Positions 2-33,004 of a DNA stretch of 64,000 nucleotides are shown piece after piece (position 1 is the stretch's first letter; each line of letters begins with the position of its first letter). The DNA comes from a virus. The stretch lies in the IMG/VR virus record IMGVR_UViG_3300025849_000031, positions 3,508 through 67,507 of that record, one strand, 5' to 3'. Both the position numbers and the translations under genes were made by a program. The notes below the pieces were generated by a model, which was not told the DNA's origin, ran no database searches, and worked only from the letters and a program-made list of their open reading frames with translations.

Positions 2-508
2 GACTTTAAGTCAAAACTAACGGGAGGCGGCGCTCGCGCCAACATGTTCAAAGTAACATGTAACTTTCCTGGATACGCACAAGGTGATGTAGAACTTACA
101 TCATTCTTGTGTAAAGGTGCTCAGTTACCAGCATCGATTATCGCTCCAATTGAAGTACCTTTCCGAGGTCGTAAATTGGTAATTGCTGGTGATCGAAGCT
201 TCGAACCTTGGAGCATTACGGTAATCAATGATTCTGAGTTTAGTGTAAGAAATGCATTTGAGCGATGGATGAATGGTATTAATCAGCATAACAATAATGA
301 AGGTCTTGTTGATCCTGTTGAATATCAAGCTGATATGATTGTTGAACAATTGCGTCGTGATGGCAGCGTGTCAAAACGTTACGATTTCCGTGGCACTTGG
401 CCAACGAATGTATCTGCGATCGACGTTAACTATGATACAGAAAATACTATCGAAGAGTTCACGGTTGAGCTACAAGTTCAATACTGGGAATCAGATACCA
501 CTTCTTAA
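2..508 (+). CDS. gp19: Tail tube protein, 5' end truncated by the window edge
   Basis: Frame is open from base 2 (DFKSKLTGGGARANMF...); motifs GR..VIAGDRSFEPWSITVIND and IEEFTVELQVQYW; lies just before the portal gene as in T4. Confidence 0.93.
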   Translation, partial: DFKSKLTGGGARANMFKVTCNFPGYAQGDVELTSFLCKGAQLPASIIAPIEVPFRGRKLVIAGDRSFEPWSITVINDSEFSVRNAFERWMNGINQHNNNEGLVDPVEYQADMIVEQLRRDGSVSKRYDFRGTWPTNVSAIDVNYDTENTIEEFTVELQVQYWESDTTS

Positions 509-514
509 TTGGTG

Positions 515-522
515 TATAAATA
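515..522 (+). promoter_or_regulatory. T4-type late promoter (gp55-dependent)
   Basis: Exact TATAAATA, intergenic, upstream of the portal gene. Confidence 0.8.
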
Positions 523-526
523 GTAG

Positions 527-552
527 TATGAGGGGGAATATTCCCCTTCATA
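527..552 (+). terminator. Stem-loop after gp19 (terminator or 5' stabilising hairpin)
   Basis: Near-perfect inverted repeat tatgagggggaatattccccttcata; only a weak U-tract follows. Confidence 0.5.
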
Positions 553-574
553 TTTACTATGAGGATTATAAGAC

Positions 575-2077: not shown

Positions 2078-2096
2078 CTGTAGAAATTTAAAATAG

Positions 2097-2104
2097 TATA
2101 AATA
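2097..2104 (+). promoter_or_regulatory. T4-type late promoter
   Basis: Exact TATAAATA, intergenic, upstream of prohead core genes. Confidence 0.75.
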
Positions 2105-2125
2105 TATAATACACAAGAGGATATT

Positions 2126-2290
2126 ATGGACATAGTAGAATTAATTGATAACATTCAACAAGGTGATAATGTTGGCGCAAAAAGAGAATTTGATACTGTA
2201 ATGGGTCAAAAGCTTACTGCCGCTTTAGATGCAAGAAAGATTGAAATTGCATCAACATTAGGTCAACCAGAACAAACAGAAGAAGAATAA
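2126..2290 (+). CDS. Small prohead core protein (gp67-like), 54 aa, below the ORF-track cutoff
   Basis: ATG at 2126 with GAGG RBS; MDIVELIDNIQQGDNVGAKREFDTVMGQKLTAALDARKIEIASTLGQPEQTEEE; sits between gp20 and gp21. Confidence 0.75.
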   Translation: MDIVELIDNIQQGDNVGAKREFDTVMGQKLTAALDARKIEIASTLGQPEQTEEE

Positions 2291-2291
2291 T

Positions 2292-2528
2292 ATGTTAACA
2301 TTTGCCGAGCTTCGAGAAGCAATCAAACTATCATCTGGCGAAAAGCAAATTAAAAAGCTTAAAGCTGGTAAGAAGAAGAAGATTGATCTTGTAATCACAC
2401 AAAAGGGTAATAAGTTTGCTGTATATGTTAATGGCGATCAGCTCGACGATTCTTTTAAGAGTGCTAAGGAAGCTGAAAAGAATGCAAATGACTTCATTAA
2501 ACTTATGGGCGAGGAACTCGAAAAATGA
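2292..2528 (+). CDS. Prohead core protein (gp68 position)
   Basis: 78 aa, Lys-rich; N-terminus MLTFAELRE resembles a gp21 cleavage leader; synteny. Confidence 0.6.
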   Translation: MLTFAELREAIKLSSGEKQIKKLKAGKKKKIDLVITQKGNKFAVYVNGDQLDDSFKSAKEAEKNANDFIKLMGEELEK

Positions 2529-3181
2529 AATTAATATCTGAGTATCATGATAGTAACCTGCAGGTTATTAGTGAAGAAAGAAAAGACGGTAAGAAAGAAT
2601 ACGTTATTGAAGGTGTATTCATGCAAGCCGATAAAGCAAATAGAAATGGACGCATTTATGAGAAAAGCATCTTAGAAGCTGCTGTAAATAAATACGTTAA
2701 AGAGCAAGTTGAAACTGGTCGTGCTGTTGGTGAGTTAAATCACCCTGATGGACCTGGTATTAACTTGGATAAAGTTTCACATAAGATCACTGAACTTCGT
2801 TTTGAAGGTAGTGATGTTATTGGAAAGGCATCAATTTTACAAACTCCTATGGGAAAGATCGTTGAAGGTCTACTTGAAGGTGGTGTAAAGCTTGGTGTAT
2901 CAAGTCGTGGTATGGGTAGTCTTGAGAAAAAAAATGGTGTCATGCAAGTCGGTAAAGATTTCATGTTAGCAACTGTTGATATAGTACAGGATCCGTCTGC
3001 TCCCGAAGCATTCGTTAATGGTATTATGGAAGGTGTTGACTGGGTCTGGGACAATGGCATCCTTAAACCTCAAGAAATTGAAAAAATTGAGACTGAAATA
3101 AAAGAAGCTCGAAATATGCGTTCATCGGATATTGAGATTAAAGCTTTTAAGAATTTCCTCTCTAAACTTGTAAACTCCTAA
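2525..3181 (+). CDS. gp21: Prohead protease
   Basis: IEGVFMQA, NRNGRIY, GELNHP, GVSSRGMGSL and DIVQDPSAPEAFVNGIME motifs. Confidence 0.97.
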   Translation: MKLISEYHDSNLQVISEERKDGKKEYVIEGVFMQADKANRNGRIYEKSILEAAVNKYVKEQVETGRAVGELNHPDGPGINLDKVSHKITELRFEGSDVIGKASILQTPMGKIVEGLLEGGVKLGVSSRGMGSLEKKNGVMQVGKDFMLATVDIVQDPSAPEAFVNGIMEGVDWVWDNGILKPQEIEKIETEIKEARNMRSSDIEIKAFKNFLSKLVNS

Positions 3182-3194
3182 GGAGATATAAAAT

Positions 3195-4319
3195 ATGTCT
3201 ATTGTAAACGAAGACATTGATAATGCAGAGCTAAGTGAAGAGCTCGTTGATGAGACACAAGTTGATTCATTAGACGAGGAAACACTTGAAGAGAAAGCTG
3301 CAGTCAAAAAGGAAGAAGACGAAGTCGATGAAGATGAGGACGAAGATGAAGTTGAAGTTGATGAAGGCGCTGAAGATGGCGTTGACGGCGGAGACGGTTC
3401 TGATGTTGGTTCTGATCAAGAAATTCCTAAGACTAAAGCTGGCATCTTGAATGCTGCATATTCAATGATGAAAAAAGCTAAGAAAGATGAAGCTATTAAA
3501 TTGTACCAAGGTATGATGAAAGCTGCTAATGTGAATGAAGATGTTGATGTTGAAGATGCTCTTGTATCTGAAAATGCCGATGTTTCTCACATTGACTATC
3601 AAGAAGATCTTGATGTACTAGTTGCTGAAGAAGCTACGCTATCCGATGGATTCCGTGGTAAAGCATCTACAATCTTTGAAGCCGCTTTAAAAACTAAAGT
3701 TGGTGCTGAGATTGATCGTCTTGAGAGTGAATACGCTCAAAACCTAGAAGAAGAAGTTTCTTCTGTTAAAACTGATTTAGTTGAGAAGGTTGATTCCTAC
3801 TTGAACTATGTAGTTGAAGGCTGGATGGGAGCCAATGAAGTTGCTGTTGAAGCAGGTCTACGTACCGAAATCGCAGAATCATTCATGACTTCTTTGCAAG
3901 GCGTATTTAAAGAGCACTATGTTAGTGTTCCTGAAGGCAAGGATGACTTGGTTGACGAATTGTCAGAACAAGTAGCTGAGCTAGAAGAGCAACTCAATAA
4001 AACCACTGACGAGAATATCCAATTATTCACATCCGTACAAGAGTCACAACGTGCAGATGTAGTAAGAAAATATACCTCTGACCTCGCAGCTACTGAAGCT
4101 GAAAAACTTTCTTCTTTGGTTGAAGATATAGAATTTGGCGATAGCGAAACTTTCGATATGAAAGTCAAGACTATCAAAGAATCTTACTTCATGAAAGAGT
4201 CTGTTGAATCAGAATCAGAAGTTGATAAAGTTGTTGGAACAGAACAAGCTCTTATTGAGCAAACTTCTGATTCAATGTCAAGATACACCTCAGCACTTAG
4301 TTCACACGTATTTAAGTAA
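3195..4319 (+). CDS. gp22: Prohead scaffolding core protein
   Basis: Acidic coiled coil; KASTIFEAA, KVDSYLNYVVEGW, FKEHYVSVPE motifs; between gp21 and gp23. Confidence 0.93.
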   Translation: MSIVNEDIDNAELSEELVDETQVDSLDEETLEEKAAVKKEEDEVDEDEDEDEVEVDEGAEDGVDGGDGSDVGSDQEIPKTKAGILNAAYSMMKKAKKDEAIKLYQGMMKAANVNEDVDVEDALVSENADVSHIDYQEDLDVLVAEEATLSDGFRGKASTIFEAALKTKVGAEIDRLESEYAQNLEEEVSSVKTDLVEKVDSYLNYVVEGWMGANEVAVEAGLRTEIAESFMTSLQGVFKEHYVSVPEGKDDLVDELSEQVAELEEQLNKTTDENIQLFTSVQESQRADVVRKYTSDLAATEAEKLSSLVEDIEFGDSETFDMKVKTIKESYFMKESVESESEVDKVVGTEQALIEQTSDSMSRYTSALSSHVFK

Positions 4320-4369
4320 GCTGTAAAACTATTTTTTTTTAAAAATAAACATTACTAGGAGAAACTAAA

Positions 4370-5818
4370 ATGTTTAAATCAGATCAAGTCCTTATGGAAA
4401 AATGGGCTCCAGTATTGGATCACGCAAGTGCACCAATTATCGAGTCATCAGAAAAGCGTGCAGTAACTGCTCGTCTTCTCGAAAACACTGAAGAAGCTTT
4501 GCGTGCTGAAAGCGCTCAAGCTTCTTACTCAATCTCTGAAGGTGTTGGTGATGGTAACCAAAACGTTCAGTCTGTCGAAAATCCAGATCCAGTATTGATT
4601 TCATTGGTACGTCGTGCAATGCCTAACCTTATTGCATATGATGTTGCTGGTGTACAGCCAATGTCTGGTCCTACTGGCCTTATCTTCGCTATGAAAGCAC
4701 GTTATGCTAACGCTGACGGTTCTCAAATCGAAGTTGGCGATGCTGAAGCATTCAAAGATGCTGCTGATACAGACTTCTCTGGTGCTGGTACTGATCGTGC
4801 TCCAAGCGCCGGTGTTGTAGCTGCTACAACTTTGGCTGCAGGTGATATTGCTCAAATCGTAACTGTTGGTAACACTGACTTTAACGCAACTAACGTTGGC
4901 GGTGGTGCTGGCTTTGGTGTTGGTACAATCTTTACACGTGGTTCTGCTGCTCCAACTGGTACAGGTACAGTTGTCAAAATCGGTACTACTGGTACTGGTA
5001 TTGCTACTGCAACTGGTGAAGGTACTACTCCTGCTGAAATGGGTTTCACTGTTGAGAAAGTTTCTGTAACTGCTAAGACACGAGTTCTACAGGCTTCTTA
5101 CACTATGGAATTGGCTCAAGACCTTAAAGCTGTACACGGTCTAGACGCTGAAGCTGAATTGGCTAATATCCTTTCTGCTGAAATTCTTGGTGAAATTAAC
5201 CGTGAAGTAATCCAGCAAATCAATACTCAGGCTAAAGTTGGTGGCGCTGGTACTGGTGCTGGTATCATCGCGTTGGCTGATGCTACTGATAACGGTGGCG
5301 GACGTTGGCAGGCAGAGCGTTTCCAAGCTCTAGCTTTCCGTCTAGAACAGGAAGCTAACACTATCGCTAAGGAAACTCGTCGCGGTAAAGGTAACTATGT
5401 AATCTGCTCAAGTTCAGTTGCTGCTGCTCTATCTGCTGCTGGTGCTTTGGCTTACGGTTCAGGTATCACTGATGGTTCTCTAGTTGTTGATAACGCTGGT
5501 AACACTTTCGCTGGTACTCTTAAGAATGGCATGAAAGTATATGTCGATCCTTATGCCGGTTACGAGTATGCTACTGTTGGTTATAAGGGTACTAACTCTT
5601 ATGACGCTGGTATCTACTACTGCCCATACGTACCATTAACTCAGCTTAAAGCTGTTAATGCCGGTACTTTCCAGCCTAAAGTTGGCTTCAAGACTCGTTA
5701 CGGTCTTGTTTCTAACCCATTCGCTGTTGAGTCAGATGCTGCTATCACAGAGAATCTTGGCACAGTTGGTGCGGGTACTAACCCTTACTTCCGTCGTAAT
5801 CTTATTACTGGTGTATAA
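4370..5818 (+). CDS. gp23: Major capsid protein
   Basis: KWAPVLD, LISLVRRAMPNLIAYDVAGVQPMSGPTGLIFAM, ELAQDLKAVHGLDAEAEL, YCPYVP, FQPKVGFKTRYG. Confidence 0.98.
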   Translation: MFKSDQVLMEKWAPVLDHASAPIIESSEKRAVTARLLENTEEALRAESAQASYSISEGVGDGNQNVQSVENPDPVLISLVRRAMPNLIAYDVAGVQPMSGPTGLIFAMKARYANADGSQIEVGDAEAFKDAADTDFSGAGTDRAPSAGVVAATTLAAGDIAQIVTVGNTDFNATNVGGGAGFGVGTIFTRGSAAPTGTGTVVKIGTTGTGIATATGEGTTPAEMGFTVEKVSVTAKTRVLQASYTMELAQDLKAVHGLDAEAELANILSAEILGEINREVIQQINTQAKVGGAGTGAGIIALADATDNGGGRWQAERFQALAFRLEQEANTIAKETRRGKGNYVICSSSVAAALSAAGALAYGSGITDGSLVVDNAGNTFAGTLKNGMKVYVDPYAGYEYATVGYKGTNSYDAGIYYCPYVPLTQLKAVNAGTFQPKVGFKTRYGLVSNPFAVESDAAITENLGTVGAGTNPYFRRNLITGV

Positions 5819-8891: not shown

Positions 8892-9476
8892 ATGACTAAA
8901 AAACTTAAACCAAAAGAAAAACCACACTACGTCAATAACAGAGAGTTTTCGTACGCTGTTGTCGATTATGTTAAAGCAGTAAATGATGCAATAGCTAAAG
9001 ATGAAGTACCACCAAAGGTGACTGATTATATTGCAACATGTTTCATGAAGATATCTGAAGGCCTGTCTCACAGACCGAACTTTGTTCGGTACACATATCG
9101 TGATGAAATGGTAATGGATGCGGTTGAAAACTGTTTAAGAGCTATTCGTAACTATAATATTGAGACTGCTACACGTACTGGTAATCCTAATGCATTCTCT
9201 TACTTTACTCAGATTTGCTTCTTTGCATTTATTCGACGTATCACGAAAGAAAAGAAACAACAAGATATAAAGCATCGATTCATTGAACGTATGGGTGTTG
9301 AGGATTTCATGGATATGGGTATGGATCAACAGGCTGCAGCTGATACAAGAGCGTATGTTGATCAACTTAAAAGTCGGATTGATATTATTAAGACTAAGGA
9401 CGAAGCTGTTAAGCAGTTTGCAAAGCAAGAAAAGATAGAAGCATCTGCAAAAAAACTTGAATTGTTTATGGTATAG
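8892..9476 (+). CDS. gp55: Late transcription sigma factor
   Basis: HYVNN, FVRYTYRDEMVMDAVENCL, NAFSYFTQICFFAFIRRI.KEKKQ motifs. Confidence 0.96.
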   Translation: MTKKLKPKEKPHYVNNREFSYAVVDYVKAVNDAIAKDEVPPKVTDYIATCFMKISEGLSHRPNFVRYTYRDEMVMDAVENCLRAIRNYNIETATRTGNPNAFSYFTQICFFAFIRRITKEKKQQDIKHRFIERMGVEDFMDMGMDQQAAADTRAYVDQLKSRIDIIKTKDEAVKQFAKQEKIEASAKKLELFMV

Positions 9477-16796: not shown

Positions 16797-17483
16797 ATGA
16801 CAGTAAGTATTTCAAATGATACTCTATCTGTGCTCAGGAACTTTTCCAGCATTAATCCCAATGTTGTGCTAAAGCCTGGTCAGGAAGTCAAGACAATCTC
16901 AGAAGCAAAGAACATTCTTGCTATTGCTGACATTGACGAAAACTTCCCTACAGAAATGGGTATCTATGATCTTAATGAATTTTTATCAGTAGTGAATCTA
17001 GTTGATAATCCACAACTCAACTTTGGTGATAATCATGTCGATATCGCCGGTGGTAACTCAAAGGTCAAGTATTTCTTTTCCGATTCGAGTATTCTAACCA
17101 CACCACAAAAGGACATTACGATGCCCGATTGTGAAGTTGAAGTATCATTTACCGATGATACATTGTCTCAAATTCGTAAGGCTGCATCAGCTTTAGGGCA
17201 TTCGGAAATGTCTATCTCAGCTACTGATGATGGTGTAAATATTAAGGTATTTGACTCAAAGGACAGCTCAGCGAATATATATAATATACAGCTTGCAAAT
17301 GATGCTGGTTACAAAGAAGGTCAGTTCGATTTCGTAATCAATATCAATAATTTGAAGCTGTTGGATGGAGACTACATTGTTAAAATCTCATCTAAACTTA
17401 TTTCCGAATGGAAAAACACAACCAAGCCTGTAAGATATTACATCGCATTGGAAAAAAATAGTAACTATAATAACTCTCAATAG
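16797..17483 (+). CDS. gp45: Sliding clamp
   Basis: TLSVLRNFSSINPN, GIYDLNEFLS, YYIALE; precedes the clamp loader genes. Confidence 0.93.
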   Translation: MTVSISNDTLSVLRNFSSINPNVVLKPGQEVKTISEAKNILAIADIDENFPTEMGIYDLNEFLSVVNLVDNPQLNFGDNHVDIAGGNSKVKYFFSDSSILTTPQKDITMPDCEVEVSFTDDTLSQIRKAASALGHSEMSISATDDGVNIKVFDSKDSSANIYNIQLANDAGYKEGQFDFVININNLKLLDGDYIVKISSKLISEWKNTTKPVRYYIALEKNSNYNNSQ

Positions 17484-20609: not shown

Positions 20610-23126
20610 GTGATCACTCTGAAATTCTATACTAATGTAACACGCTACGGCAATCAACTCCTCGTTCGTGGCTATGATGGCAACAAACGATTCTCTGATA
20701 AAATCAAATATCAACCAACTCTATTTGTTTCAACGAATAAACCAACTGAATGGCGATCGCTATGTGGCAAACCAGTTGCTCCGGTTGTTCATGATTCTAT
20801 GCGTGATGCCAAGGATTGGATTCAAATGAACAAAGATGTTGTTGGTAGGAATATCTTTGGTAACGATCGTCATATCTCTACATACATTAATGATGCGTAT
20901 CCAGGTCAAATCGACTTTGATCGTAACAAGATTAATGTAACAACTATTGATATTGAGGTTGAATCTGATGATGGCTTCCCAGAGCCAGAACTTGCTGATA
21001 AGGCTATAATATCAATCACAACTAAGAACAACATTGATGATACTTATTATGTGTGGGCTCTAGGTCATTATGATGTAGATAAGACACTTATGAAAGACAA
21101 GCCTGTTATCTACAAACAGTTCATTAATGAAGCTCATCTTCTTATGGATTTTACCGACTTCTGGCGTGGCGAAAACTGTCCTGATATTGTAACAGGCTGG
21201 AACTGCAGATTCTTTGATATTCCATATCTTGTCAACCGCACAGGTAAAGTCCTTGATGGTGAATTCGTTAAGCGTTATTCTCCATGGGGTATGGTTGAAG
21301 AACGTGATGTCACTATCATGGGCCGTACTCAGCAATCTTACGAACTTAAAGGTATATCCATTATCGATTACCTTGAACTCTTTAAGAAGTTTGGTTACTC
21401 CTACGGTGCACAAGAATCATACAAGCTTGATCATATTGCTCACGTAGTTCTTGGCGAAAAGAAGCTATCATACGAAGAACATGGAAACTTGCATACTCTC
21501 TATCTAAAGGATTACCAGAAGTTCATTGATTATAACATCAAAGATGTAGAGTTGGTTGATCGATTCGAAGACAAGATGGGTCTTATTACTCTATGTCTCA
21601 CAATGGCATACAAAGGTGGCGTTAACTACAACGATACTTTTGGTACAACTGCTATATGGGATTCAATCATTTATCGTGAATTGTTTCAAAAGAAAGTTGC
21701 CGTTCCATTCAGTGACGTTAAATTCAAATCACCATATCCTGGTGGCTATGTTAAAGATCCTCAAGTAGGTCTTCATAAGTGGGTTGTGAGCTTCGATTTG
21801 AATTCGCTATATCCTTCTCTTATTATGCAGTACAATATGTCACCCGAAACGATTATCGAAGGTGAGCAATACAGTGTTAATATCCAATCATTGCTCGATA
21901 AGAAGACTACATTCGAAGGTACCGGCAAATCGATTGGTGGCAATGGTCAAGTCTTTCGAACCGATAAGAAAGGCATCTTGCCAGACATTATCGATGGTAT
22001 GTATACTGAACGTGTTGGCATCAAACGTCAAATGTTGGATGCTCAGCAAGCACTACAGAATGCTGATAAAGATGATAAACAAACGATATACAGTATCGAA
22101 CGTGATATTGCTATTGCCGAAAACAGACAGATGGCTATTAAGATTCTTCTAAACTCTCTTTATGGTGCACTCGGTAATAAGTACTTCCGATTCTTTGATC
22201 AACGTATTGCTGAAGCTATTACACTATCTGGTCAGTTATCGATCAAGTGGGCTGAGGTTGCTATTAATGATTACCTCAACAAAGTACTCAAATCAGATAA
22301 AGATTATGTCATTGCGATCGATACCGATTCACTCTATGTAAACCTTGATCCATTGGTAGAAGCAGTCAAACCAGCTAATCCTGTAGACTTTCTTGATACT
22401 GTTGCACAAAAGAAACTCGAACCAGCTCTTACTGAAGCTTATGCTAACCTATTCAATATGATGGGTGGCATCGAAAACAAAATGGTTATGGGTCGTGAAG
22501 TTATTGCAGACACAGGTATATGGACTGCTAAGAAACGTTATATCCTCAATGTGCATGACAACGAAGGTGTACGCTATGCAGAACCTAAGCTAAAAATCAT
22601 GGGCATTGAAGCTATCAAATCTTCCACCCCCATGCCATGTCGTGATGCTCTTAAATCTATTTTCAAGGTAATCATCGACGGTAGTGAAACAAAGACGCAG
22701 GCTGCAATTAAGGATTTTAAAGATTACTTTGTAACACTACCTGCGCATGATATTGCATTCCCACGTGGTGTGTCAAAGGTTAAAGAATACAAAGACAACA
22801 ACACAATCTACAAGAAAGGTACTCCAATTCACGTTCGTGGTAGCTTGCTCTATAACAAACGCGTTCAGGATCTATCTCTTACGAAGAAGTATTCACCAAT
22901 CAAGAATGGTGATAAGGTTAAGTTCATCTATCTTCGTAAGCCAAATGTCATTAAGGAGAACGTTATATCGTTCCCTGATTATCTACCAGCTGAATTTGTA
23001 ATCGATAAATACATTGACTATGACTTACAGTTCCAGAAAACATTCCTTGATCCAATCGAACCAATCCTTGGTGCAATCGGTTGGTCTTCCGAAGAAAAGG
23101 CTTCTCTTGAAGACTTTTTTGGATAA
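20610..23126 (+). CDS. gp43: Family B DNA polymerase (true start GTG 20610 or CTG 20619)
   Basis: Exonuclease DIE; polymerase SFDLNSLYPS, KILLNSLYGALG, IDTDS, KKRY motifs; no intein seen. Confidence 0.98.
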   Translation: MITLKFYTNVTRYGNQLLVRGYDGNKRFSDKIKYQPTLFVSTNKPTEWRSLCGKPVAPVVHDSMRDAKDWIQMNKDVVGRNIFGNDRHISTYINDAYPGQIDFDRNKINVTTIDIEVESDDGFPEPELADKAIISITTKNNIDDTYYVWALGHYDVDKTLMKDKPVIYKQFINEAHLLMDFTDFWRGENCPDIVTGWNCRFFDIPYLVNRTGKVLDGEFVKRYSPWGMVEERDVTIMGRTQQSYELKGISIIDYLELFKKFGYSYGAQESYKLDHIAHVVLGEKKLSYEEHGNLHTLYLKDYQKFIDYNIKDVELVDRFEDKMGLITLCLTMAYKGGVNYNDTFGTTAIWDSIIYRELFQKKVAVPFSDVKFKSPYPGGYVKDPQVGLHKWVVSFDLNSLYPSLIMQYNMSPETIIEGEQYSVNIQSLLDKKTTFEGTGKSIGGNGQVFRTDKKGILPDIIDGMYTERVGIKRQMLDAQQALQNADKDDKQTIYSIERDIAIAENRQMAIKILLNSLYGALGNKYFRFFDQRIAEAITLSGQLSIKWAEVAINDYLNKVLKSDKDYVIAIDTDSLYVNLDPLVEAVKPANPVDFLDTVAQKKLEPALTEAYANLFNMMGGIENKMVMGREVIADTGIWTAKKRYILNVHDNEGVRYAEPKLKIMGIEAIKSSTPMPCRDALKSIFKVIIDGSETKTQAAIKDFKDYFVTLPAHDIAFPRGVSKVKEYKDNNTIYKKGTPIHVRGSLLYNKRVQDLSLTKKYSPIKNGDKVKFIYLRKPNVIKENVISFPDYLPAEFVIDKYIDYDLQFQKTFLDPIEPILGAIGWSSEEKASLEDFFG

Positions 23127-23185: not shown

Positions 23186-23491
23186 ATGAAAACTGTACAA
23201 CTACTTAAACTAACCACTGGCGAAGAGATCCTCGGTCGTGTATCTTACGCAGATGGTCTATATAATATTACTATGCCAGTGAATATTGTGCAAGACGACA
23301 GCAATATGGGGTTTGAACCATTTATGCCTTATGCTGAAACTGAATCATTTGATTTTAGTGAAGCACATATCGTTCTTGCATGTGATCCTACACCAACATT
23401 AGCTGATTATTATCTTAAAGCTACTACTGTAGAACAAGCTTCAATGATTGATACATCGGCTGCTCCATCTCAACAAGGGATTATCGTATAA
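23186..23491 (+). CDS. Hypothetical protein (Sm-like start LLKLTTGEEILG)
   Basis: GGAG RBS; resembles the 8377 ORF N-terminus in pattern. Confidence 0.6.
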   Translation: MKTVQLLKLTTGEEILGRVSYADGLYNITMPVNIVQDDSNMGFEPFMPYAETESFDFSEAHIVLACDPTPTLADYYLKATTVEQASMIDTSAAPSQQGIIV

Positions 23492-23946
23492 TGAGTAATG
23501 ATTGGGTAAAAGATATTCACGAGATGCAAACTAAATATGGCACTCGTGATTGGGTTAATGCTAACCTTGCGCATGACAAGCTGAGAGCATTCTTAGATTT
23601 CCGCATGGATTTTATTGAAGAAGAGTTTGAAGAAACTATTAAAGCTGTTGCAATTGATAATGATCCTGAAGAAATCGTTGATGGCCTTATTGATTTGTGT
23701 GTTGTTGCAATCGGTACTCTTGATGCATTCGGTATCGATCCTTATGCAGCATGGGACGCTGTGCATAAAGCAAACATGTCAAAGGAAGTTGGTGTAAAAC
23801 CTTCACGCCCTAATCCTCTTGGTGTTCCAGATTTAATTAAACCAGAAGGTTGGACTGCACCAAGTCACCAAGGCAATCATGGATTATTCCCAGCCGCGGT
23901 TGCTGTTACAGCGCCAATAAAAGATAAAACTAATTTGAAGTCTTAA
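23491..23946 (+). CDS. MazG-like nucleoside triphosphate pyrophosphohydrolase
   Basis: FIEEEFEET, EIVDGLID, VHKANMSK, LIKPEGW pattern of all-alpha NTP-PPases. Confidence 0.8.
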   Translation: MSNDWVKDIHEMQTKYGTRDWVNANLAHDKLRAFLDFRMDFIEEEFEETIKAVAIDNDPEEIVDGLIDLCVVAIGTLDAFGIDPYAAWDAVHKANMSKEVGVKPSRPNPLGVPDLIKPEGWTAPSHQGNHGLFPAAVAVTAPIKDKTNLKS

Positions 23947-25692: not shown

Positions 25693-25814
25693 ATTTTGGT
25701 AGAGTGTTATTACTTTCGTTTCTCGCAACAACAATTGATAACACTGATGATAACTACGGAGTAAGAACATCGATGAGAAGATTTAAAGAATGTAGAGAGG
25801 TTACACATGTCTAG
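25686..25814 (+). CDS. Small hypothetical protein (42 aa)
   Basis: MVNFGRVLLLSFLATTIDNTDDNYGVRTSMRRFKECREVTHV fills the gap and overlaps both neighbours. Confidence 0.4.
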   Translation: MVNFGRVLLLSFLATTIDNTDDNYGVRTSMRRFKECREVTHV

Positions 25815-26187
25815 ATCGCATTTTAAGGGTAAGTACATTCCAAAGAATGTCAACAAGTATACCGGCAATGCTAAACAAATAATCTATCGTAGTAGTTGGG
25901 AAAGGCTATTCATGGTCTATTGTGATAAGAAACAAGAAATCAAGAATTGGTCAAGCGAAGAGATTAAGATTCCATATATGTTTGAAGGTAAACATCGAAC
26001 ATACTATCCTGACTTCTGGGTAGACATGATGGATAAAGACGGTATGCGAGTCCAAAAGATCGTCGAGATCAAGCCACACTATCAGCGAACAATGAAGGTT
26101 AACAAAGCAAAGTGGAGTGCTGCTACAAAGTATGCACAAGATAATCATATGGAATTTCTAGTCATGACAGAAAAGGAGTTGTTTTGA
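25807..26187 (+). CDS. TnsA-family endonuclease, T4 gp4 (head completion)-like
   Basis: KGKYIPKN..KY, YRSSWE, WSSEEI.IPY, YYPDF, VEIKP. Confidence 0.75.
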   Translation: MSRSHFKGKYIPKNVNKYTGNAKQIIYRSSWERLFMVYCDKKQEIKNWSSEEIKIPYMFEGKHRTYYPDFWVDMMDKDGMRVQKIVEIKPHYQRTMKVNKAKWSAATKYAQDNHMEFLVMTEKELF

Positions 26188-27002: not shown

Positions 27003-27031
27003 TGTACATTTATCTCAAACTGTGTTATAAT
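27003..27031 (+). promoter_or_regulatory. Sigma70-type promoter heading the DNA-modification cluster
   Basis: TGTACA-17-TATAAT with TG extension. Confidence 0.8.
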
Positions 27032-27060: not shown

Positions 27061-27543
27061 ATGAAAGAATCTTTAAAAGTGTTACAAGAATGTGCTGATC
27101 TTCAGATTAAAAAAGCTAATGATTATCAGAATCCTAATTCAAATATTAAACAGGCAGACTACTATCCGCGCGGCGTATCATCATTACTTGATATTGTTCA
27201 TGCTAAAACATTACGTATGATGTCAGTAGTTGAAGCAATGGAGAATGATCCAGACTATAGTCCTAACTTTGAATCACTCGAAGATTCAGCAAAAGATCTA
27301 ATCAATTATGGTTCATTCATTGCTGCTTATATTCGTGGTGGTATCGATGGTCAAGATACTGATCGTGATTTCTTAAATCGTCGCAATATTGAACCTGTAG
27401 ATACTAAGCGTGACGGGCTCGGTTTAGCGATCAACACCGAAGCCGATGGTTCGGCAGTTCGTGTAAGTGGCGTTCCATACAGTGTTTCGAAACACGACGT
27501 AAAATTTAAGTGTATGCCCAGTCATGAATATGGTGATTGGTAA
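27061..27543 (+). CDS. Nucleotide-modification-associated protein (DUF1599/Nmad1-like)
   Basis: LQIKKANDY, IVHAKTLR, ESLEDSAKDLINY pattern; first gene of the cluster. Confidence 0.65.
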   Translation: MKESLKVLQECADLQIKKANDYQNPNSNIKQADYYPRGVSSLLDIVHAKTLRMMSVVEAMENDPDYSPNFESLEDSAKDLINYGSFIAAYIRGGIDGQDTDRDFLNRRNIEPVDTKRDGLGLAINTEADGSAVRVSGVPYSVSKHDVKFKCMPSHEYGDW

Positions 27544-27544
27544 A

Positions 27545-28219
27545 ATGGAATATCATAATGTTGAAGACATTCGTCAATACTTTGTTGATGAACTAGAAGC
27601 AGAAAAATTTACGACCGATCGTACTGGTGCTAAAACAATTGAGTTACTTGGTGCATCATTCATTGCTAATGAAAATGCAATCTTTGGTAGCCCAAATGAA
27701 GACTACATTCAAAAAGAACTTGAATGGTACGATAGTGAATCGACTAATATCTATGATATATCGAATGAGCCTCCTAAAGCATGGAAAATGACAGCCAATG
27801 ATCATGGTGAAATTAATTCGAACTATGGCAATCTAATATATAATGCTAAACACTACAATCAATATTATAATGTGCTGAGTGAATTACGAAATAATCCGGA
27901 CTCACGTCGTGCATCGATGGTGTATCAGCGTCCTTCAATATGGGTCGACTATAATGATAATGGTAAGAATGATTTTATTTGCACCAATGCTGTAACGTAT
28001 TATATTCGTGATAACCAACTACATTGTGTAGTTCAAATGAGATCTAATGATGTGGTCTTTGGTTATAAGAATGATTTCGCATGGCAAGAGCATGTGCTGT
28101 ATCAATTATGTGGAGATCTAAACGATCGAAATTTTGATGATCACATCGAAGTCGGTAATATCTACTGGCAAGTCCAAAACTTACACGTATATGAGAGGCA
28201 CTTTGATCTTGTCAAATAA
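27545..28219 (+). CDS. gp42: dCMP hydroxymethylase-like enzyme (thymidylate synthase superfamily)
   Basis: SRRA, DFICTNAVTYYIR, QMRSNDVVFGYKNDFAWQ, NLHVYERHF; Asp in KND as in T4 gp42 rather than the Asn of ThyA. Confidence 0.88.
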   Translation: MEYHNVEDIRQYFVDELEAEKFTTDRTGAKTIELLGASFIANENAIFGSPNEDYIQKELEWYDSESTNIYDISNEPPKAWKMTANDHGEINSNYGNLIYNAKHYNQYYNVLSELRNNPDSRRASMVYQRPSIWVDYNDNGKNDFICTNAVTYYIRDNQLHCVVQMRSNDVVFGYKNDFAWQEHVLYQLCGDLNDRNFDDHIEVGNIYWQVQNLHVYERHFDLVK

Positions 28220-28655
28220 ATGGGATAAACGTTATATGGAACTGGCCAAGACAGTATCAACTTGGTCAAAGGATCCATCAAAGAAAGTTGGTGCGGTTGC
28301 TATTGGATCTAAAGGTCAAGTTTTGGCTCAAGGATTCAATGGCTTTCCGCGTGGTATCGACGATAGTGAAAACCGCTTAGTTGATAAAGACACTAAATAT
28401 AAGTATGTCGTGCACGCTGAAATGAATCTTATATATAATGCGACATTTAATGGAACGTCATTAAATGGTTCGACAGTTTATGTGTATGGACTACCCGTCT
28501 GCTCTGAATGTGCAAAAGGTCTTATTCAGGTCGGTGTAAAACAAATCGTAATGAGTGAACACTCGATGGAAGATGCACCTGAAAAGTGGATAGAATCGTG
28601 TGAGCTTTCGGTAGCCATGCTTAACGAAGCAGGAATACATTGGAAAACAGTATGA
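28209..28655 (+). CDS. cd: dCMP deaminase
   Basis: TTG start with GAGG RBS; SKDPSKKVGAV, GFNGFPRG, HAEMN, PVCSECAK zinc motifs. Confidence 0.92.
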   Translation: MSNKWDKRYMELAKTVSTWSKDPSKKVGAVAIGSKGQVLAQGFNGFPRGIDDSENRLVDKDTKYKYVVHAEMNLIYNATFNGTSLNGSTVYVYGLPVCSECAKGLIQVGVKQIVMSEHSMEDAPEKWIESCELSVAMLNEAGIHWKTV

Positions 28656-29764
28656 AGAAAATATTAATTACAGGTATGAATAAGAATCAGACTACAAAGG
28701 ATTTTTATTTAAGACAACAACTTAAGGTAGTACCATCTCATTATTCTCTTATAAGATGCTTAGAGGATATGGGTTATGAAGTAGAACAACGATTGGTAAA
28801 GATTGGAGAAGATCTATCTGAATACCATCGGGTTATATGTTTCCTTGCATCTCCACGCCAAGCCCTCCAGTTAGCATTCTATAACGGTCTGTGGGCCATT
28901 CATGCTACACCAAAGGAAAACCTTGTATTGGCATTTGATGATTGGCAAACAGAAGATATCTTTAAAGGCATTCTATCTTGTAAAGATAAAGATTCGTTGC
29001 TGAAAGAGTTTACCATTAATCAAAACAAGATGTGTGATCCAGACATGTCGTTTGAATTACTTGAACCGCATACTGAAACATTACTTGAAGCTGTAAACTA
29101 TATTGGTGAAAAGAAAGCTCCAATGTTGCTATCAGTATTCATGGGTGGTGATCTAAGCAAGCTTGTTGATTATCCTGAAGAACTCCTTGTTGGTTATAAT
29201 CCTAATCCGTATCATCGTAACCGAGTGCCAGGCAATCGTGGTGATATTCATATCGATGAGATGGAATATATGGAACAGATTATGATGCCTTCAGTCGAAG
29301 AAGATACAGTTGCTCCAGCTGATAAGGTTAAATGCTTTAACTTTGCATCATTAGTGCAAGGTAAAACCAAGCGTTGGTTAAAGCAACAGAATGCTGATTC
29401 ATGGGAAATCGAGTTCTTTGGTTCACGTAAAGAAAAGCAACGTCGTCTTGGTGAAGGTGATATGTGTCAAGTATATGCCGAACAATGGGGTTGTCTAATG
29501 CCAGGATATAATCATGCTGGATCTGGTTGGTGGAGAGCACGCCCATTACAGCTAGCAGATGCTGGTTCTATTCTTATTGGTGAATACGAAGAGATGATGT
29601 TACTATATAATAATGAACAGCTTGCATCATTAAAGGCAAGTGATATCGTTAATCTTTCAACAGAAGAATTATCAAGTCTAGCTGATAGACAAAAAGCAGC
29701 TCTACTTCAAGAGCATCCATTAGATGAAACACTACAACAAAAGGAACTGAGTGTTATACTATGA
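28652..29764 (+). CDS. Putative DNA glycosyltransferase (GT-B fold, remote T4 beta-glucosyltransferase-like)
   Basis: N-terminus MKKILITG..VVPS...EDMGYEV, AFDD, C-terminal GWWRARP..LADAGSILIG; lies between the gp42-like gene and sugar-nucleotide enzymes. Confidence 0.55.
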   Translation: MKKILITGMNKNQTTKDFYLRQQLKVVPSHYSLIRCLEDMGYEVEQRLVKIGEDLSEYHRVICFLASPRQALQLAFYNGLWAIHATPKENLVLAFDDWQTEDIFKGILSCKDKDSLLKEFTINQNKMCDPDMSFELLEPHTETLLEAVNYIGEKKAPMLLSVFMGGDLSKLVDYPEELLVGYNPNPYHRNRVPGNRGDIHIDEMEYMEQIMMPSVEEDTVAPADKVKCFNFASLVQGKTKRWLKQQNADSWEIEFFGSRKEKQRRLGEGDMCQVYAEQWGCLMPGYNHAGSGWWRARPLQLADAGSILIGEYEEMMLLYNNEQLASLKASDIVNLSTEELSSLADRQKAALLQEHPLDETLQQKELSVIL

Positions 29765-30774
29765 AGTCAATATTAATCGTAGGCGCTGGATTCTCTGGCG
29801 CCGTAATTGCAAGAGAGCTCGCAGAAGCTGGACATAATTGTACTATAATCGATAAGCGCCATCATATTGGTGGCAATGCTTACGATTATGAGTGTAGTGG
29901 AATCCGTATTCATAAATATGGTCCTCATCTATTTCATACAAACAATAAAGAAGTAGTTGATTGGCTATCTCAATTTACTGAATGGGTTGATTATCAGCAT
30001 AAAGTTAAAGCTCAACTCTCTGATGGTCGCTATGTAACATTACCAGTTAATAAGGAAACAAAGGAGATTGTGGGTGAAGATAATATCCTCGATACATTCT
30101 TTAGACCATATACTCTCAAGATGTGGGGTAAGACTCTAGATGAACTTGATCCATCTATTATTAATCGCATTCCAACACGTGATGATGACAACGAGTTATA
30201 CTTTCCAAACGATAAATATCAGATGATGCCTAAAGATGGTTATACGAAGATCTTTGAAAATATCTTTAAGCATAAGAATATTAAGGTCTTCACTGGCACT
30301 CGTTTTACGAAGTCAATGGAAAAGAAGTATGATCATGTGTTTAACTCAATGCCAATCGATCAATACTTTAATAACAAGCATGGCGAACTTCCGTATCGCT
30401 CTATCAAGTTTCATAAGGTTCTTTTACCGATGGCTAAGGTTCTACCAACTGCTACTGTTAACTTTACACATGACGATCCATATACTCGAGTAACTGAATG
30501 GAAGAATATTCCTAATCATGGTGAATCAGCTACTCAAACAATATTAACATACGAAGAGCCATGTGATTATAAAGATAATAATAAAGAAAGATATTATCCA
30601 GTCAAAGATGTAGATGGTGTAAACAGGGAAACGTATAAAAAATATAAAGAAATGGTTGATACTGATCGTATGACTTTCATTGGTCGATGCGGAATGTATG
30701 TCTACGTGGATATGCATCAGGCAATCTCATCAGCCCTAGCAACTTCAAAGAGGTATTTAAAAGAATGCGTATAG
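29761..30774 (+). CDS. glf: UDP-galactopyranose mutase
   Basis: FAD motif GAGFSG, HIGGNAYD, HKYGPHLFHT, YQMMPKDGY, ERYYPV, GRCGMYVYVDM. Confidence 0.93.
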   Translation: MKSILIVGAGFSGAVIARELAEAGHNCTIIDKRHHIGGNAYDYECSGIRIHKYGPHLFHTNNKEVVDWLSQFTEWVDYQHKVKAQLSDGRYVTLPVNKETKEIVGEDNILDTFFRPYTLKMWGKTLDELDPSIINRIPTRDDDNELYFPNDKYQMMPKDGYTKIFENIFKHKNIKVFTGTRFTKSMEKKYDHVFNSMPIDQYFNNKHGELPYRSIKFHKVLLPMAKVLPTATVNFTHDDPYTRVTEWKNIPNHGESATQTILTYEEPCDYKDNNKERYYPVKDVDGVNRETYKKYKEMVDTDRMTFIGRCGMYVYVDMHQAISSALATSKRYLKECV

Positions 30775-31517
30775 CAATTACTGGATCAAGTGGTTTTATC
30801 GGTGGTCATGTAAAGAATAAGCTTATAGAACTAGGCCATACTGTCGATGAATGGGATTTTAAGATCGACAGGCCTGTACAGGATTTCGTAGATTTTCAAT
30901 CACCTAATGTTGATTATGTTATTCATCTTGCTGCTTATGCAGATGTAAGGGAAAGCATTAATGAACCACAAAAATACTGGGACAATAATGTAACGCTTAC
31001 TACCGAGATTCAAGAGTGGTGTAACTTCTACGATATACCTTTAATATATGCTTCATCTTCTTGTATACATGATTGGCATTTATCTCCATACGGAATGAGT
31101 AAGAAGATCAATGAAGAAACTGCATTTGAAAATCAGATTGGATTACGATTTACTACAGTTTATGGTGATGGTGCTCGCGATGAAATGCTAATTGGCAGAT
31201 TGATTGAAGGTCGAGTAAGTTATTTAACGACTCATATTCGTGATTTTGTGCATGTTGATGATGTAGTAGATGTAATGCTACTATTGATTGAAAAAGAAAT
31301 GGACGGTGTAACTCATCTTAAACCTGCTTATGATATCGGTACAGGCAAAGGTGTAGTTGTTGCAGATCTAGGACCACTAGCCGGATACGATATAGATATT
31401 AAACCAGGCGACAAATGCGAAGCTTTCGATAACACGGCTGATATATCAGATATTACAGAGCTCGGTTGGTCGCCAAAATATGATATTGAAGAATACATTA
31501 AGGATAAGACCAAATGA
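30765..31517 (+). CDS. NAD-dependent sugar-nucleotide epimerase/dehydratase (extended SDR)
   Basis: ITGSSGFIG, HLAA, YASSS, YGMSK (YxxxK), RFTTVYG, RDFVHVDD. Confidence 0.9.
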   Translation: MRIAITGSSGFIGGHVKNKLIELGHTVDEWDFKIDRPVQDFVDFQSPNVDYVIHLAAYADVRESINEPQKYWDNNVTLTTEIQEWCNFYDIPLIYASSSCIHDWHLSPYGMSKKINEETAFENQIGLRFTTVYGDGARDEMLIGRLIEGRVSYLTTHIRDFVHVDDVVDVMLLLIEKEMDGVTHLKPAYDIGTGKGVVVADLGPLAGYDIDIKPGDKCEAFDNTADISDITELGWSPKYDIEEYIKDKTK

Positions 31518-32701
31518 AATACGCAAGTATAGTACCACTGATCGGTGGAGAAACAATTGCAATGGAGAATGTGTTTGGGAAACGTCCTGAATATATTCTA
31601 TCATATAGCGCATTTGCTAATAATGATTCTCAGATTTTAAATCATTATAATAATGAAGTGCCATATCATGTGATTGACGAAGGTAATGGTAAAACAGACT
31701 ATGTCGATGTAGTCAATACTGTATGCCCATGCGCTGGGTTATCATCTCTATCTCCACAAGCCAATTCAAATAGCGCTGCAAATGATTGGATGTCCGAATC
31801 AGCTGAATACGTACTTGCTAATATTAAACCTAAAGTATTTTGGGGTGAGAATGCTCCTCGACTAGCATCAAAGATGGGCGAACCAGTCGTTAGAAAATTA
31901 CGTAAGATTGCTGAGCATCATGGGTACACGTTTTCTATATATAAGACTAAGAGCATATTACATGGTTTATCGCAAGTTCGAGACAGAACTTTCTACTTTT
32001 TCTGGAAAGGAACCCAAGTGCCACTCCTTGGTTACGTCTCGAATCCGCACACTCGTATCGAAGATCATATTCGTTCTATCCAAAGACGCAAAGATGATCC
32101 AATGAATATCTTGACTAATGAGAAGATCCCATCAGAGAATCCTTACTATCGATATGTCTTAGAAGTAATCGAAGGTGGTATTACACATTCTCAGTTCCAA
32201 GATAAGATCGAAAAGACTACAAATCCAATGGATGAAATAGAAAAGCATACGAATTATAAAGTCGTTGCTCAATGGATGCGTGCAAATGGATATGATAATG
32301 AAGCTGCTAAGTGTGATCGTAAGTATCACAAACTTAAAGCAGGTGGTAATATTATGCGTAAGACAACCGAAATACCCAAGGATTATATTGGTGCTTTCGT
32401 TGGTCACTTCCCAACAAATCTATGTCACCCTGACGAAGATCGATATCTAACTGTAAGAGAAGCAATGTCTATTATGAAGCTTCCAGATGATTTCAATCTA
32501 ATAAACCCTAAGGCTAATCTAAATCATATATGCCAGAACGTTCCTGTTACAACAGCAGAACATCCAGCTCGTATGATTAAGAAGTGGCTTGAAGGTAATA
32601 CTGTTGATTCAATTGAGACTAAGTTCTTAGTTGAAGACAACAAGAAACGCACCTATGATTATGAAAATAACGGTGTACAATTAGATAGTTTTATGTTATA
32701 A
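31514..32701 (+). CDS. Divergent DNA cytosine-C5 methyltransferase-like protein
   Basis: Catalytic PC (VCPCAGLS), ENA (motif VI), QVRDR (VIII), HP...RYLTVREAM (IX), QNVP (X); motif I degenerate (VPLIGG). Confidence 0.75.
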   Translation: MKYASIVPLIGGETIAMENVFGKRPEYILSYSAFANNDSQILNHYNNEVPYHVIDEGNGKTDYVDVVNTVCPCAGLSSLSPQANSNSAANDWMSESAEYVLANIKPKVFWGENAPRLASKMGEPVVRKLRKIAEHHGYTFSIYKTKSILHGLSQVRDRTFYFFWKGTQVPLLGYVSNPHTRIEDHIRSIQRRKDDPMNILTNEKIPSENPYYRYVLEVIEGGITHSQFQDKIEKTTNPMDEIEKHTNYKVVAQWMRANGYDNEAAKCDRKYHKLKAGGNIMRKTTEIPKDYIGAFVGHFPTNLCHPDEDRYLTVREAMSIMKLPDDFNLINPKANLNHICQNVPVTTAEHPARMIKKWLEGNTVDSIETKFLVEDNKKRTYDYENNGVQLDSFML

Positions 32702-32702
32702 T
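32674..32702 (+). promoter_or_regulatory. Sigma70-type promoter for the bS21-uvsX-gp41 unit
   Basis: TGTACA-17-TATAAT embedded in the 3' end of the MTase-like gene. Confidence 0.75.
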
Positions 32703-32761: not shown

Positions 32762-33004
32762 ATGCCTAGTGTATGTTTACATCCGAAAAACTCGAAGAAC
32801 AAGAAGCCTATGCCATTTGATGTGGCAATGCGTAAGTTCAGCAAGCTAGTCGATGAAGCAGGTATCTTGCAGAAAGCAAGAGAGAAAGAGTACTATGAAA
32901 AACCAACTGCTAAACGTAAGCGTAAGAAGAAAGAAGCGTTAAAGCGTCAAAATCGATTGAATGCTGAGAATCCAATTAATCAACGTAATAATAGGAAGTA
33001 CTAA
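32762..33004 (+). CDS. rpsU: Ribosomal protein bS21
   Basis: FDVAMRKFSKLVDEAGILQKAREKEYYEKPTAKRKRKK matches the S21 pattern. Confidence 0.88.
   Translation: MPSVCLHPKNSKNKKPMPFDVAMRKFSKLVDEAGILQKAREKEYYEKPTAKRKRKKKEALKRQNRLNAENPINQRNNRKY

Follow-up and report, generated by a model that had tools for sequence, protein, structure and literature searches.

A clamp-type tail and a remodelled cofactor side on a cytosine-C5 methyltransferase-fold protein that accompanies dCMP hydroxymethylase genes in marine T4-like phages

The window analyzed here, a stretch of 64,000 nt (positions 3,508–67,507 of the IMG/VR record IMGVR_UViG_3300025849_000031), derives from an uncultured marine T4-like myovirus and carries gp20, gp23, UvsW, UvsY, gp46/47, gp45, gp44/62, RegA, gp43, UvsX, gp41, ThyX, and NrdAB. 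It contains an island of DNA-modification genes in the order MazG-like, gp42, deoxycytidine monophosphate (dCMP) deaminase, and a variable transferase/sugar cassette, with a gene for a 395-aa protein as the last member (Table 1). The start codon of this last open reading frame (ORF) shares bases with the stop codon of the preceding epimerase gene in an ATGA overlap. Based on the evidence below, the 395-aa protein belongs, within the cytosine-C5 DNA methyltransferase (C5-MTase) fold, to a separate branch restricted to viruses, and is predicted to be in working order. What is said here of the identity of this gene and of its genomic context is held with high confidence.

The 395-aa protein matched PF00145 with an E-value of 7.2e-18 and 65.5 bits, against a cut-off of 22, and on the NCBIfam dcm model TIGR00675 it reached 33 bits, below the cut-off of 100.65, with a match that started only at residue 64. 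When a profile of 129 family representatives, whose alignment also underlies the family conservation values given below, was compared with the solved C5-MTases in the PDB, the alignment likewise began only at about position 41–62. As both comparisons miss the N-terminal part, the protein has a catalytic half that is recognizable by sequence and a cofactor half that is not. The AlphaFold2 (AF2) model, built from 129 relatives, had a pLDDT of 96.1 and a pTM of 0.93. Aligned with VIA-align, it matched M.HaeIII (1dct; Z 26.0, rmsd 2.9 over 275 residues), M.HhaI (2uz4; Z 25.4), and CmoX (8yf3; Z 23.4), the last with 22% identity, the highest among the structural matches; CmoX was also the best PDB match by sequence (E 0.0047). 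With both domains of the fold present in the predicted structure, ORF 31514–32701 is assigned as a C5-cytosine methyltransferase-fold protein.

The catalytic motifs IV, VI, and VIII were all found, and they are highly conserved in the family: Cys73 occurs in 99% and Pro72 in 91% of the 129 representatives, Gln154 in 97%, while Glu112, Arg156, and Arg158 are invariant. With these residues kept, the protein is predicted to be capable of the attack by Cys73 on C6 of a flipped-out cytosine. The cofactor side is different. Residue 1 of the model pairs with M.HhaI residue 12 in the structural alignment, and if V7, P8, L9, I10, and G11G12 correspond to what we take to be F18, A19, G20, L21, and G22G23 of M.HhaI, VPLIGG stands in the place of FxGxGG. 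The motif I Phe is thereby replaced by Val or Ile and the first Gly by Leu, and this variant is fixed in 96–98% of the family (P8 97%, L9 96%, G11/G12 96–98%). The original prediction, made from the sequence of this window, had described intact catalytic PC, EN, and QxRxR motifs combined with VPLIGG instead of FxGxGG; direct reading of the motifs and their 91–100% conservation agree with the former, and the structural alignment together with the 129 representatives with the latter.

Two further SAM-contact motifs are altered (SAM, S-adenosylmethionine). At the end of beta2, where motif II carries an acidic residue that contacts the SAM ribose, position 30 is Ser in 89% and Thr in 8% of the representatives, and position 31 is Tyr, Phe, or Trp in 95%; mapped by secondary structure rather than by coordinates, Ser30 would replace the ribose-binding Glu. 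In motif X, Cys340-Gln341 aligned in the profile alignments with the Gly-Asn of M.HaeIII and with Gly-Arg350 of CmoX, and Gln341 is present in 126 of the 129 sequences (98%). A motif III-like acid after beta3, at position 55, is kept in 82%. The N-terminal 66 residues hold 2.13 bits per column, motifs IX–X 2.18, and motifs IV–VIII 2.52, and since the altered residues are themselves conserved and the N-terminal information is close to that of the core, the cofactor site appears to be remodelled rather than eroded. We take the pocket still to bind a ligand in an altered mode, quite possibly an adenosyl compound. However, SAM binding is uncertain because three canonical SAM-contact motifs are replaced, and SAM-dependent methyl transfer to cytosine C5 is put forward only as the default chemistry. 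The target-recognition region (residues 171–300) is variable, with 1.32 bits per column in the family alignment and a mean identity to the query of 20%.

The protein ends in a short hydrophobic/acidic motif of the gp45 sliding-clamp-binding type. Among the 68 window ORFs of at least 100 aa, an L[DE]xF[FM]x ending was found only in the gp43 DNA polymerase, the gp55 late sigma factor, and the MTase-like ORF. The C-termini of T4 gp43, gp55, and gp33 are of this hydrophobic/acidic kind and can replace one another as gp45-binding epitopes (PMC2988020). In related loci, both proteins carry the same type of tail motif in 25 of 25 unique polymerase/MTase pairs, and the strict pattern occurs in 67% of the MTase homologs in the fetched loci vs. 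5.7% of the other ORFs, a background that includes the polymerases. Across 30 members of the lineage, Leu390 and Phe393 are invariant and Gln389 and Met394 are conserved in at least 90%, whereas the preceding linker is variable. In more distant members the ending is often ...LF, which is also found at the end of bacterial beta-clamp ligands. We know of no description of a phage or bacterial C5-MTase with such a tail.

Co-folding of gp45 with residues 356–395 gave a score of 0.39 vs. 0.00 for the best control, with a partner pLDDT of at least 41 and a contact agreement of at least 81%, which supports docking weakly. Of 80 solved complexes, 58 reached the mark used, as did 2 of 110 mismatched pairs, but among scores of 0.60 or less the passes comprised just 7 of the 80 solved complexes and both of those mismatches; a pass at this level is more likely wrong than right if the interaction was not already probable. 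The pass may also reflect memory, since the complex of the RB69 clamp with the polymerase peptide has already been solved. The likeness of the tails at the sequence level is strong, and the clamp binding itself is predicted. A clamp-bound enzyme acts where gp45 is loaded, that is, on replicating phage DNA, which makes host DNA or RNA a less likely target. A clamp-type tail on a C5-MTase-like enzyme is new here and points to an action on nascent phage DNA; recruitment of the eukaryotic DNMT1 by PCNA offers an analogy for a DNA enzyme tethered to a clamp.

The gp42 homolog of the island matches the T4 dCMP hydroxymethylase over its full length (Table 1). It reads RSNDVVFGYKND and NDFICTN, with the catalytic Cys present and Asp at the equivalents of ThyA positions 169, 177, and 143. 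A 2026 study reported that some gp42-like enzymes yield 5-hydroxy-dCMP, and gave as diagnostics Asn at ThyA-169 for a 5-hydroxycytosine (5hoC) synthase, Asp at ThyA-177 for dCMP specificity, and an acid at ThyA-143 for a hydroxymethyl product (PMC13326640). Since Asp is found at all three positions, the window gp42 homolog is read as a hydroxymethylase and not as a 5-hydroxy-dCMP synthase, and the gp42 pathway that had been presumed at the outset was borne out by this signature along with the full-length match. The same signature is common to all other collected gp42-like proteins except that of locus L174, which has Cys at the ThyA-169 equivalent.

To relate the enzyme to this pathway, 173 family loci from IMG/VR and assemblies were collected, and those with at least 8 kb of upstream flank were taken as informative. 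A gp42-like gene was found in 57 of the 58 loci with such a flank. The exception is phage S-TIM5, whose sole gene of the thymidylate synthase (TS) family (F417_gp076, annotated thymidylate synthase; locus L002, 5766–6602, minus strand) lies 3 kb from the MTase homolog. In its product, the ThyA-177 equivalent is Asp and the ThyA-143 equivalent is Cys, the former suggesting that the product is dCMP-directed; by sequence it is probably a dCMP-modifying enzyme, and S-TIM5 DNA may carry C5-modified cytosine. After dereplication at 50% identity, the gp42 link held in 6 of 7 clusters, plus S-TIM5. It also extends beyond the syntenic T4-like group, as the gp42 homolog of phage XG4 lies 5 kb from the MTase homolog, and locus L177 holds two MTase paralogs with a hydroxymethylase-type TS homolog. 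In two distant loci, L175 and L176, no TS homolog was found within 10 kb, the span covered.

In the reverse direction, 39 related gp42 loci had a downstream flank of 8 kb or more, and the enzyme was found in 28 of them. Locus L196 (IMGVR_UViG_3300004457_000505, 153–5600) has the same cassette of a 374-aa protein, UDP-galactopyranose mutase (UGM), and epimerase without the MTase-like gene, and UvsX follows directly. Because L196 keeps the identical cassette without the gene, the sugar pathway and glycosylation do not need the enzyme. Relatives with gp42 and the deaminase and without the MTase-like gene include L196, L207, L210, L214, L219, L235, and L236, which provide natural controls. As judged by gene content, the family is found only with a C5-substituting background, to which it is an accessory, the background and the sugar cassette being independent of it; this one-way dependence follows from the 57 of 58 loci and S-TIM5 on the one side, and from the 28 of 39 loci and L196 on the other. 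A TET/JBP dioxygenase (PF12851) had no match in the record, which is about 38% complete, and the control genomes also lacked a match; none was present in the Pfam lists of related loci.

The family is widespread in the ocean. An exhaustive profile-free search returned 762 family clusters at 50% identity, 252 of them below 1e-30, and a word-indexed search returned 2,685 at 90% identity, with Tara and further marine assemblies as the source of many. Ten distant clusters were all metagenome-only, and the nearest ESM Atlas clusters were 100% viral; no bacterial family member was seen in either set, and bacterial contigs were not searched directly. In cultured phages the homologs are distant only, being found in TIM5-like cyanophages (32%), Pseudoalteromonas phage vB_Psh_XG4 (31%), and Bacillus phage G (23%). 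Nearly identical copies of the window stretch itself were found in the marine metagenomes of at least 15 studies dated 2014–2025. Metatranscriptome contigs from two runs span the whole island at a depth as in the DNA runs, but transcription cannot be shown from contigs, which may stem from DNA carried over. The literature search found no paper describing this family, and PF00145 is not mentioned in the MetaGPA paper or in the accessible parts of its supplements.

Tandem paralogs of the enzyme occur in L091 (9971–11218 and 11232–12434), L173, and L177 (5519–6724 and 8335–9552). In one L091 copy the Pro-Cys is gone (CYPGALAS) and PLMGS takes the place of PLIGG, suggesting that an active copy is paired with a catalytically dead one. 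Long forms with the PLIGG-type domain at the N-terminus were found in marine metagenomes, namely P0184 (598 aa), P0165, P0189 (1462 aa), P0190, and P0262. P0184, encoded on a 2.4 kb Tara scaffold, has a zf-CXXC domain (E 6.6e-7) at its end, after a Lys/Glu-rich tail, and looks eukaryote-like or giant-virus-like. The zf-CXXC domain binds unmodified CpG. An ESM Atlas lookup of this fused form returned the same viral clusters only, without taxonomy for the fused proteins.

Table 1. Features of the modification island, motifs of the MTase-like protein, and clamp-related features (window coordinates).
Feature	Position (nt)	Strand	Basis
LELFMV tail of gp55 late sigma factor (ORF 8892–9476)	9456–9473	+	phrog_234, E 1.4e-50
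gp45 sliding clamp, proposed docking partner	16797–17483	+	PF09116; phrog_223, E 2.1e-71
SLEDFFG tail of gp43 DNA polymerase	23103–23123	+	sequence
Second MazG-like NTP pyrophosphatase	23491–23946		
MazG-like hydrolase, first island gene, candidate dCTP/dNTP pyrophosphatase	27061–27543	+	phrog_18404 'hydrolase', E 1.1e-11
gp42-type dCMP hydroxymethylase	27524–28219	+	T4 enzyme PDB 1b49/1b5e, E 1.5e-73, full length
dCMP deaminase, true start probably 3′ of the listed TTG	28134–28655	+	PF00383, E 1.4e-18; homologs 139–154 aa
374-aa protein, candidate sugar transferase on 5-hydroxymethylcytosine DNA	28640–29764	+	phrog_14998; no Pfam match
UDP-galactopyranose mutase (UGM)	29761–30774	+	PF03275, E 1.2e-53
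NAD-dependent sugar-nucleotide epimerase	30687–31517	+	PF01370, E 2.2e-25
C5-cytosine methyltransferase-fold gene, 395 aa	31514–32701	+	ORF, PF00145, AF2 model
Motif I variant IVPLIGG (residues 6–12), canonical FxGxGG	31529–31549	+	sequence, structural alignment
Ser30-Tyr31 at beta2 end (motif II place)	31601–31606	+	DSSP, beta2 = residues 28–30
Motif IV CPCAGLS (residues 71–77), catalytic Cys73	31724–31744	+	sequence
Motif VI GENAP (residues 111–115), Glu112	31844–31858	+	sequence
Motif VIII QVRDR (residues 154–158)	31973–31987	+	sequence
Target-recognition region (residues 171–300), variable, mostly helical	32024–32413	+	conservation, DSSP
Motif X variant CQNVP (residues 340–344), canonical GNxVP	32531–32545	+	profile alignments to 1dct, 8yf3
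QLDSFML tail of MTase-like protein, hydrophobic/acidic, gp45 clamp-binding type	32678–32698	+	tail comparison

The cassette between the deaminase and the MTase-like gene predicts a furanose sugar on 5-hydroxymethylcytosine (hmC), as judged from the 374-aa protein, UGM, and the epimerase. The AF2 model of the 374-aa protein is of low confidence (pLDDT 57), and nearly all of its best matches are GT-B proteins with Z 8–9.5, including the T4 beta-glucosyltransferase (1c3j, Z 9.1) and alpha-glucosyltransferase (1y6f, Z 8.5); it is probably a GT-B glycosyltransferase, for which the model provides a hint. The epimerase likely starts in fact at the Met of MRIAITG near 30768, and its homolog in L004 has 245 aa. 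In related loci a dGTP_diPhyd_N protein holds the position of the first-island MazG-like gene.

This cassette is swappable, as seen when 27061–31517 was compared with loci L007–L009, L023, L099, L082, L091, L003, L176, and L177. The commonest version consists of an inositol-1-phosphate-synthase-like gene, a 5-hmdU-DNA-kinase-like (HMUDK-like) gene, and two unknowns; in others there is a lone gene resembling T4 alpha-glucosyltransferase (AGT-like) or TET-associated glycosyltransferase (TAGT-like), or there are fusions of nucleotidyltransferase and kinase, an FkbM methyltransferase, a radical SAM protein, or NeuB with an inositol phosphatase. Contigs of co-occurring strains (runs X2, X6, X7, and X14) diverge exactly where the MTase-like gene begins at its 5′ end (31486–31523) and close to the gp42 start (27381/27560), and these points look like recombination borders of the variable cassette. 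The cassette variants and the divergence at the 5′ edge of the gene together make the MTase-like gene the constant downstream border of a swappable module.

A promoter-like site (TGTACA, a 17 nt spacer, and TATAAT, preceded by TG) occurs in two identical copies that flank the island, one at 27003–27031, 5′ of the MazG-like gene, and the other at 32674–32702, at the end of the MTase-like ORF and ahead of the S21 gene. A scan for sigma-70-like promoters gave 23 sites vs. a shuffled mean of 26.7, with no excess over chance. The ribosomal protein S21 homolog (32762–33004) directly follows the MTase-like gene; PF01165 matches its homologs in related loci, and the gene is present in many of the relatives, though not in all. 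This neighbor raised a reading of the enzyme as a Dnmt2-like RNA m5C methyltransferase, which was dropped in view of the gp42 association, the DNA-clamp tail, and the absence of S21 from many enzyme-bearing loci. Between a primase-like gene and the island lies a TnsA-like/restriction-type endonuclease (25807–26187; PF08722, E 2e-18), a possible candidate for a nuclease that attacks unmodified DNA.

C5-methyltransferases are unable to methylate a C5 that is already substituted. The original prediction had set out this paradox and offered three ways around it, another cofactor such as carboxy-SAM, editing of hmC, or protection of residual unmodified cytosine; the paradox stands, as a competent C5-attacking site with conserved altered motifs does lie beside a genuine gp42, and of the three options the last fits the clamp-type tail and the one-way gp42 dependence best, though still as a proposal. 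In the mechanism we tentatively favor, the enzyme would be held by its tail to the gp45 sliding clamp, in the wake of the replisome, and from there would scan freshly made phage DNA. There it would alkylate C5 of cytosines that had been incorporated as plain dCTP, having escaped hydroxymethyl replacement, by default through methylation with an adenosyl cofactor (SAM) bound in an altered pose. Virion DNA would then leave no unmodified cytosine exposed to the C-specific nucleases of host or phage. Such clamp-docked C5 alkylation of residual cytosine in nascent DNA is plausible rather than probable. An accessory for free-C5 cytosines in nascent DNA nonetheless fits best with a family that depends on a C5-substituting pathway, is dispensable for glycosylation, and is indifferent to the cassette.

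Several points weigh against this proposal. Of the canonical SAM contacts, motif I has lost its Phe and its first Gly, motif II its Glu, and motif X its Asn, each to another residue. A target-recognition region that varies in this way fits an enzyme with sequence specificity better than one that mops up cytosines in general, the tail is absent from the homologs in S-TIM5 and XG4, and the clamp-docking prediction is weak and possibly a likeness to the solved RB69 clamp–peptide complex. Further, the enzyme is missing from 11 of the 39 gp42 loci (about 28%), and T4 does without it. Residual cytosine and 5-methylcytosine (5mC) in the DNA of these phages are themselves predictions.

The enzyme might instead act on hmC without SAM, with Cys73 adding to C6 so that the 5-CH2-OH, or a phosphorylated form of it, leaves and is exchanged or removed at chosen sites, and with the rebuilt cofactor side holding the 5-substituent instead of SAM. 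Such reactions on hmC are known in vitro from C5-MTases that lack a cofactor, and this chemistry would account for the conserved replacement of three SAM-contact positions, as well as for a gene that lies at the 3′ edge of cassettes changing the hmC group (5-hmdU-DNA-kinase-like with inositol genes, AGT-/TAGT-like, and NeuB) and is translationally coupled to the last cassette gene in the window and in L176; the clamp tail, too, would place the enzyme on hmC-rich nascent DNA. However, the same enzyme stands beside chemically unrelated cassettes, UDP-sugar transferases require no activation of hmC, and glycosylation is independent of the enzyme, as L196 has the cassette without the gene, so that the hmC editing envisaged at the outset is not needed for the sugar pathway. 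Most members also retain the adenine contacts, that is, the motif III-like acid and the motif II aromatic residue, and one fused member carries a CXXC finger, a binder of unmodified CpG. Altogether, we consider SAM-free action on hmC unlikely. With a SAM analogue or some other donor, the altered pocket might also serve to transfer a non-methyl group to a free C5. CmoX, a DNA cytosine C5-carboxymethyltransferase of Synechococcus phage S-B43 (PDB 8yf3), binds the carboxymethyl group through R350, which is equivalent to M.HhaI N304, and uses E47/F48 at motif II and Asp-69 (for adenine) as cofactor residues (PMC12783734). It is both the best PDB sequence match and the structural match of highest identity to the 395-aa protein, and the position that selects the transferred group is a near-invariant Gln in the family, which would be in line with a carboxymethyl-like handle. 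But Arg or Lys is absent there, VCPC is found instead of SPPC, and no CmoA-like gene (TIGR00740) was found in the 67.7 kb record, about 38% complete, or in the Pfam annotations of the seven related loci shown. These three observations disfavor the use of carboxy-SAM, contrary to the option raised earlier, and with only gp42, the deaminase, and MazG-like genes recurring, no constant neighbor able to make a special cofactor was found; such a transfer is very unlikely.

Another account would be an ordinary sequence-specific, SAM-dependent 5mC methyltransferase, orphan and anti-restriction or host-directed, whose proximity to gp42 merely reflects the shared ancestry of one phage group. In keeping with this, the PF00145 threshold is passed with all catalytic motifs present, the target-recognition region varies as it does among enzymes of differing specificity, a single syntenic lineage of marine T4-like phages accounts for many of the loci, and the sources label homologs as site-specific DNA-cytosine methylase. 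In contrast, the association with a dCMP-type TS reaches the non-syntenic, unrelated phages S-TIM5, XG4, and L177, and motifs I, II, and X are unlike those of M.HhaI, M.HaeIII, and CmoX, the enzymes compared, with differences fixed family-wide. The TIGR00675 score and the PDB profile alignments, which miss the first 40–60 residues, the wholly viral nearest Atlas clusters, and a clamp tail that indicates phage replication forks rather than host DNA tell against it as well. The association statistics and the fixed motif changes together make an ordinary, unrelated orphan methylase quite unlikely. A bolder possibility, which we regard as doubtful, is that the clamp-tethered enzyme dispenses with ordinary SAM methylation and performs replication-coupled chemistry on substituted or residual cytosines, for example with a one-carbon unit from a non-SAM donor or by activation or exchange of the 5-CH2-OH through the Cys–C6 adduct. 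If true, this would be a new enzymatic step of viral DNA hypermodification in abundant ocean phages.

The puzzle is that the family is apparently confined to phages that substitute C5 at the nucleotide level, yet is very common in ocean viromes. If the enzyme is a replication-coupled back-up, as we tentatively favor, it would ensure fully modified virion DNA and introduce the idea of phages policing their own base substitution, while a non-methyl chemistry on hmC DNA would be a natural activity of the MTase fold of interest to phage-defence biology and epigenomic tool-making. These readings are directly testable thanks to the clamp-type tail, the natural MTase-minus relatives, and two cultured carriers of homologs, S-TIM5 and XG4.

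Among known systems, the island resembles T4 gp42 with the alpha/beta-glucosyltransferases, and the 5-hydroxycytosine clusters of RB69, DLP3, and RL38J1, in that a TS homolog, a dNTP pyrophosphatase, sugar-nucleotide genes, and DNA glycosyltransferases occur together, with UGM common to the window island and the RL38J1 cluster (PMC13326640). Unlike the 5hoC clusters, its TS homolog has the hydroxymethylase signature with Asp at ThyA-169, and those clusters are without a C5-MTase-fold gene, the word 'methyltransferase' having 0 occurrences in that paper (PMC13326640). Similar to T4 gp43, gp55, and gp33, the MTase-like protein carries its short hydrophobic/acidic motif at the extreme C-terminus, in its case after a variable linker.

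CmoX, the nearest solved relative of the 395-aa protein by sequence, is likewise a marine-phage protein of the C5-MTase fold in which the motif X position is altered, a change that in CmoX retunes the transferred group. However, CmoX keeps the canonical Phe-25, Glu-47, Phe-48, and Asp-69 in addition to SPPC and Arg-350, where the 395-aa protein has V7, S30, VCPC, and Q341, and CmoX travels with CmoA and has ordinary cytosine DNA as its substrate, whereas the 395-aa protein travels with gp42. With M.HaeIII and M.HhaI the protein shares the two-domain fold, the motif IV PC, VI EN, VIII QxRxR, and IX, and the unpermuted motif order. It differs from them in VPLIGG, the motif II Ser, CQNVP, the helical target-recognition region, and the C-terminal clamp-type tail; it lies below the TIGR00675 cut-off, and its family is virus-only as far as seen and is tied to dCMP hydroxymethylase genes.

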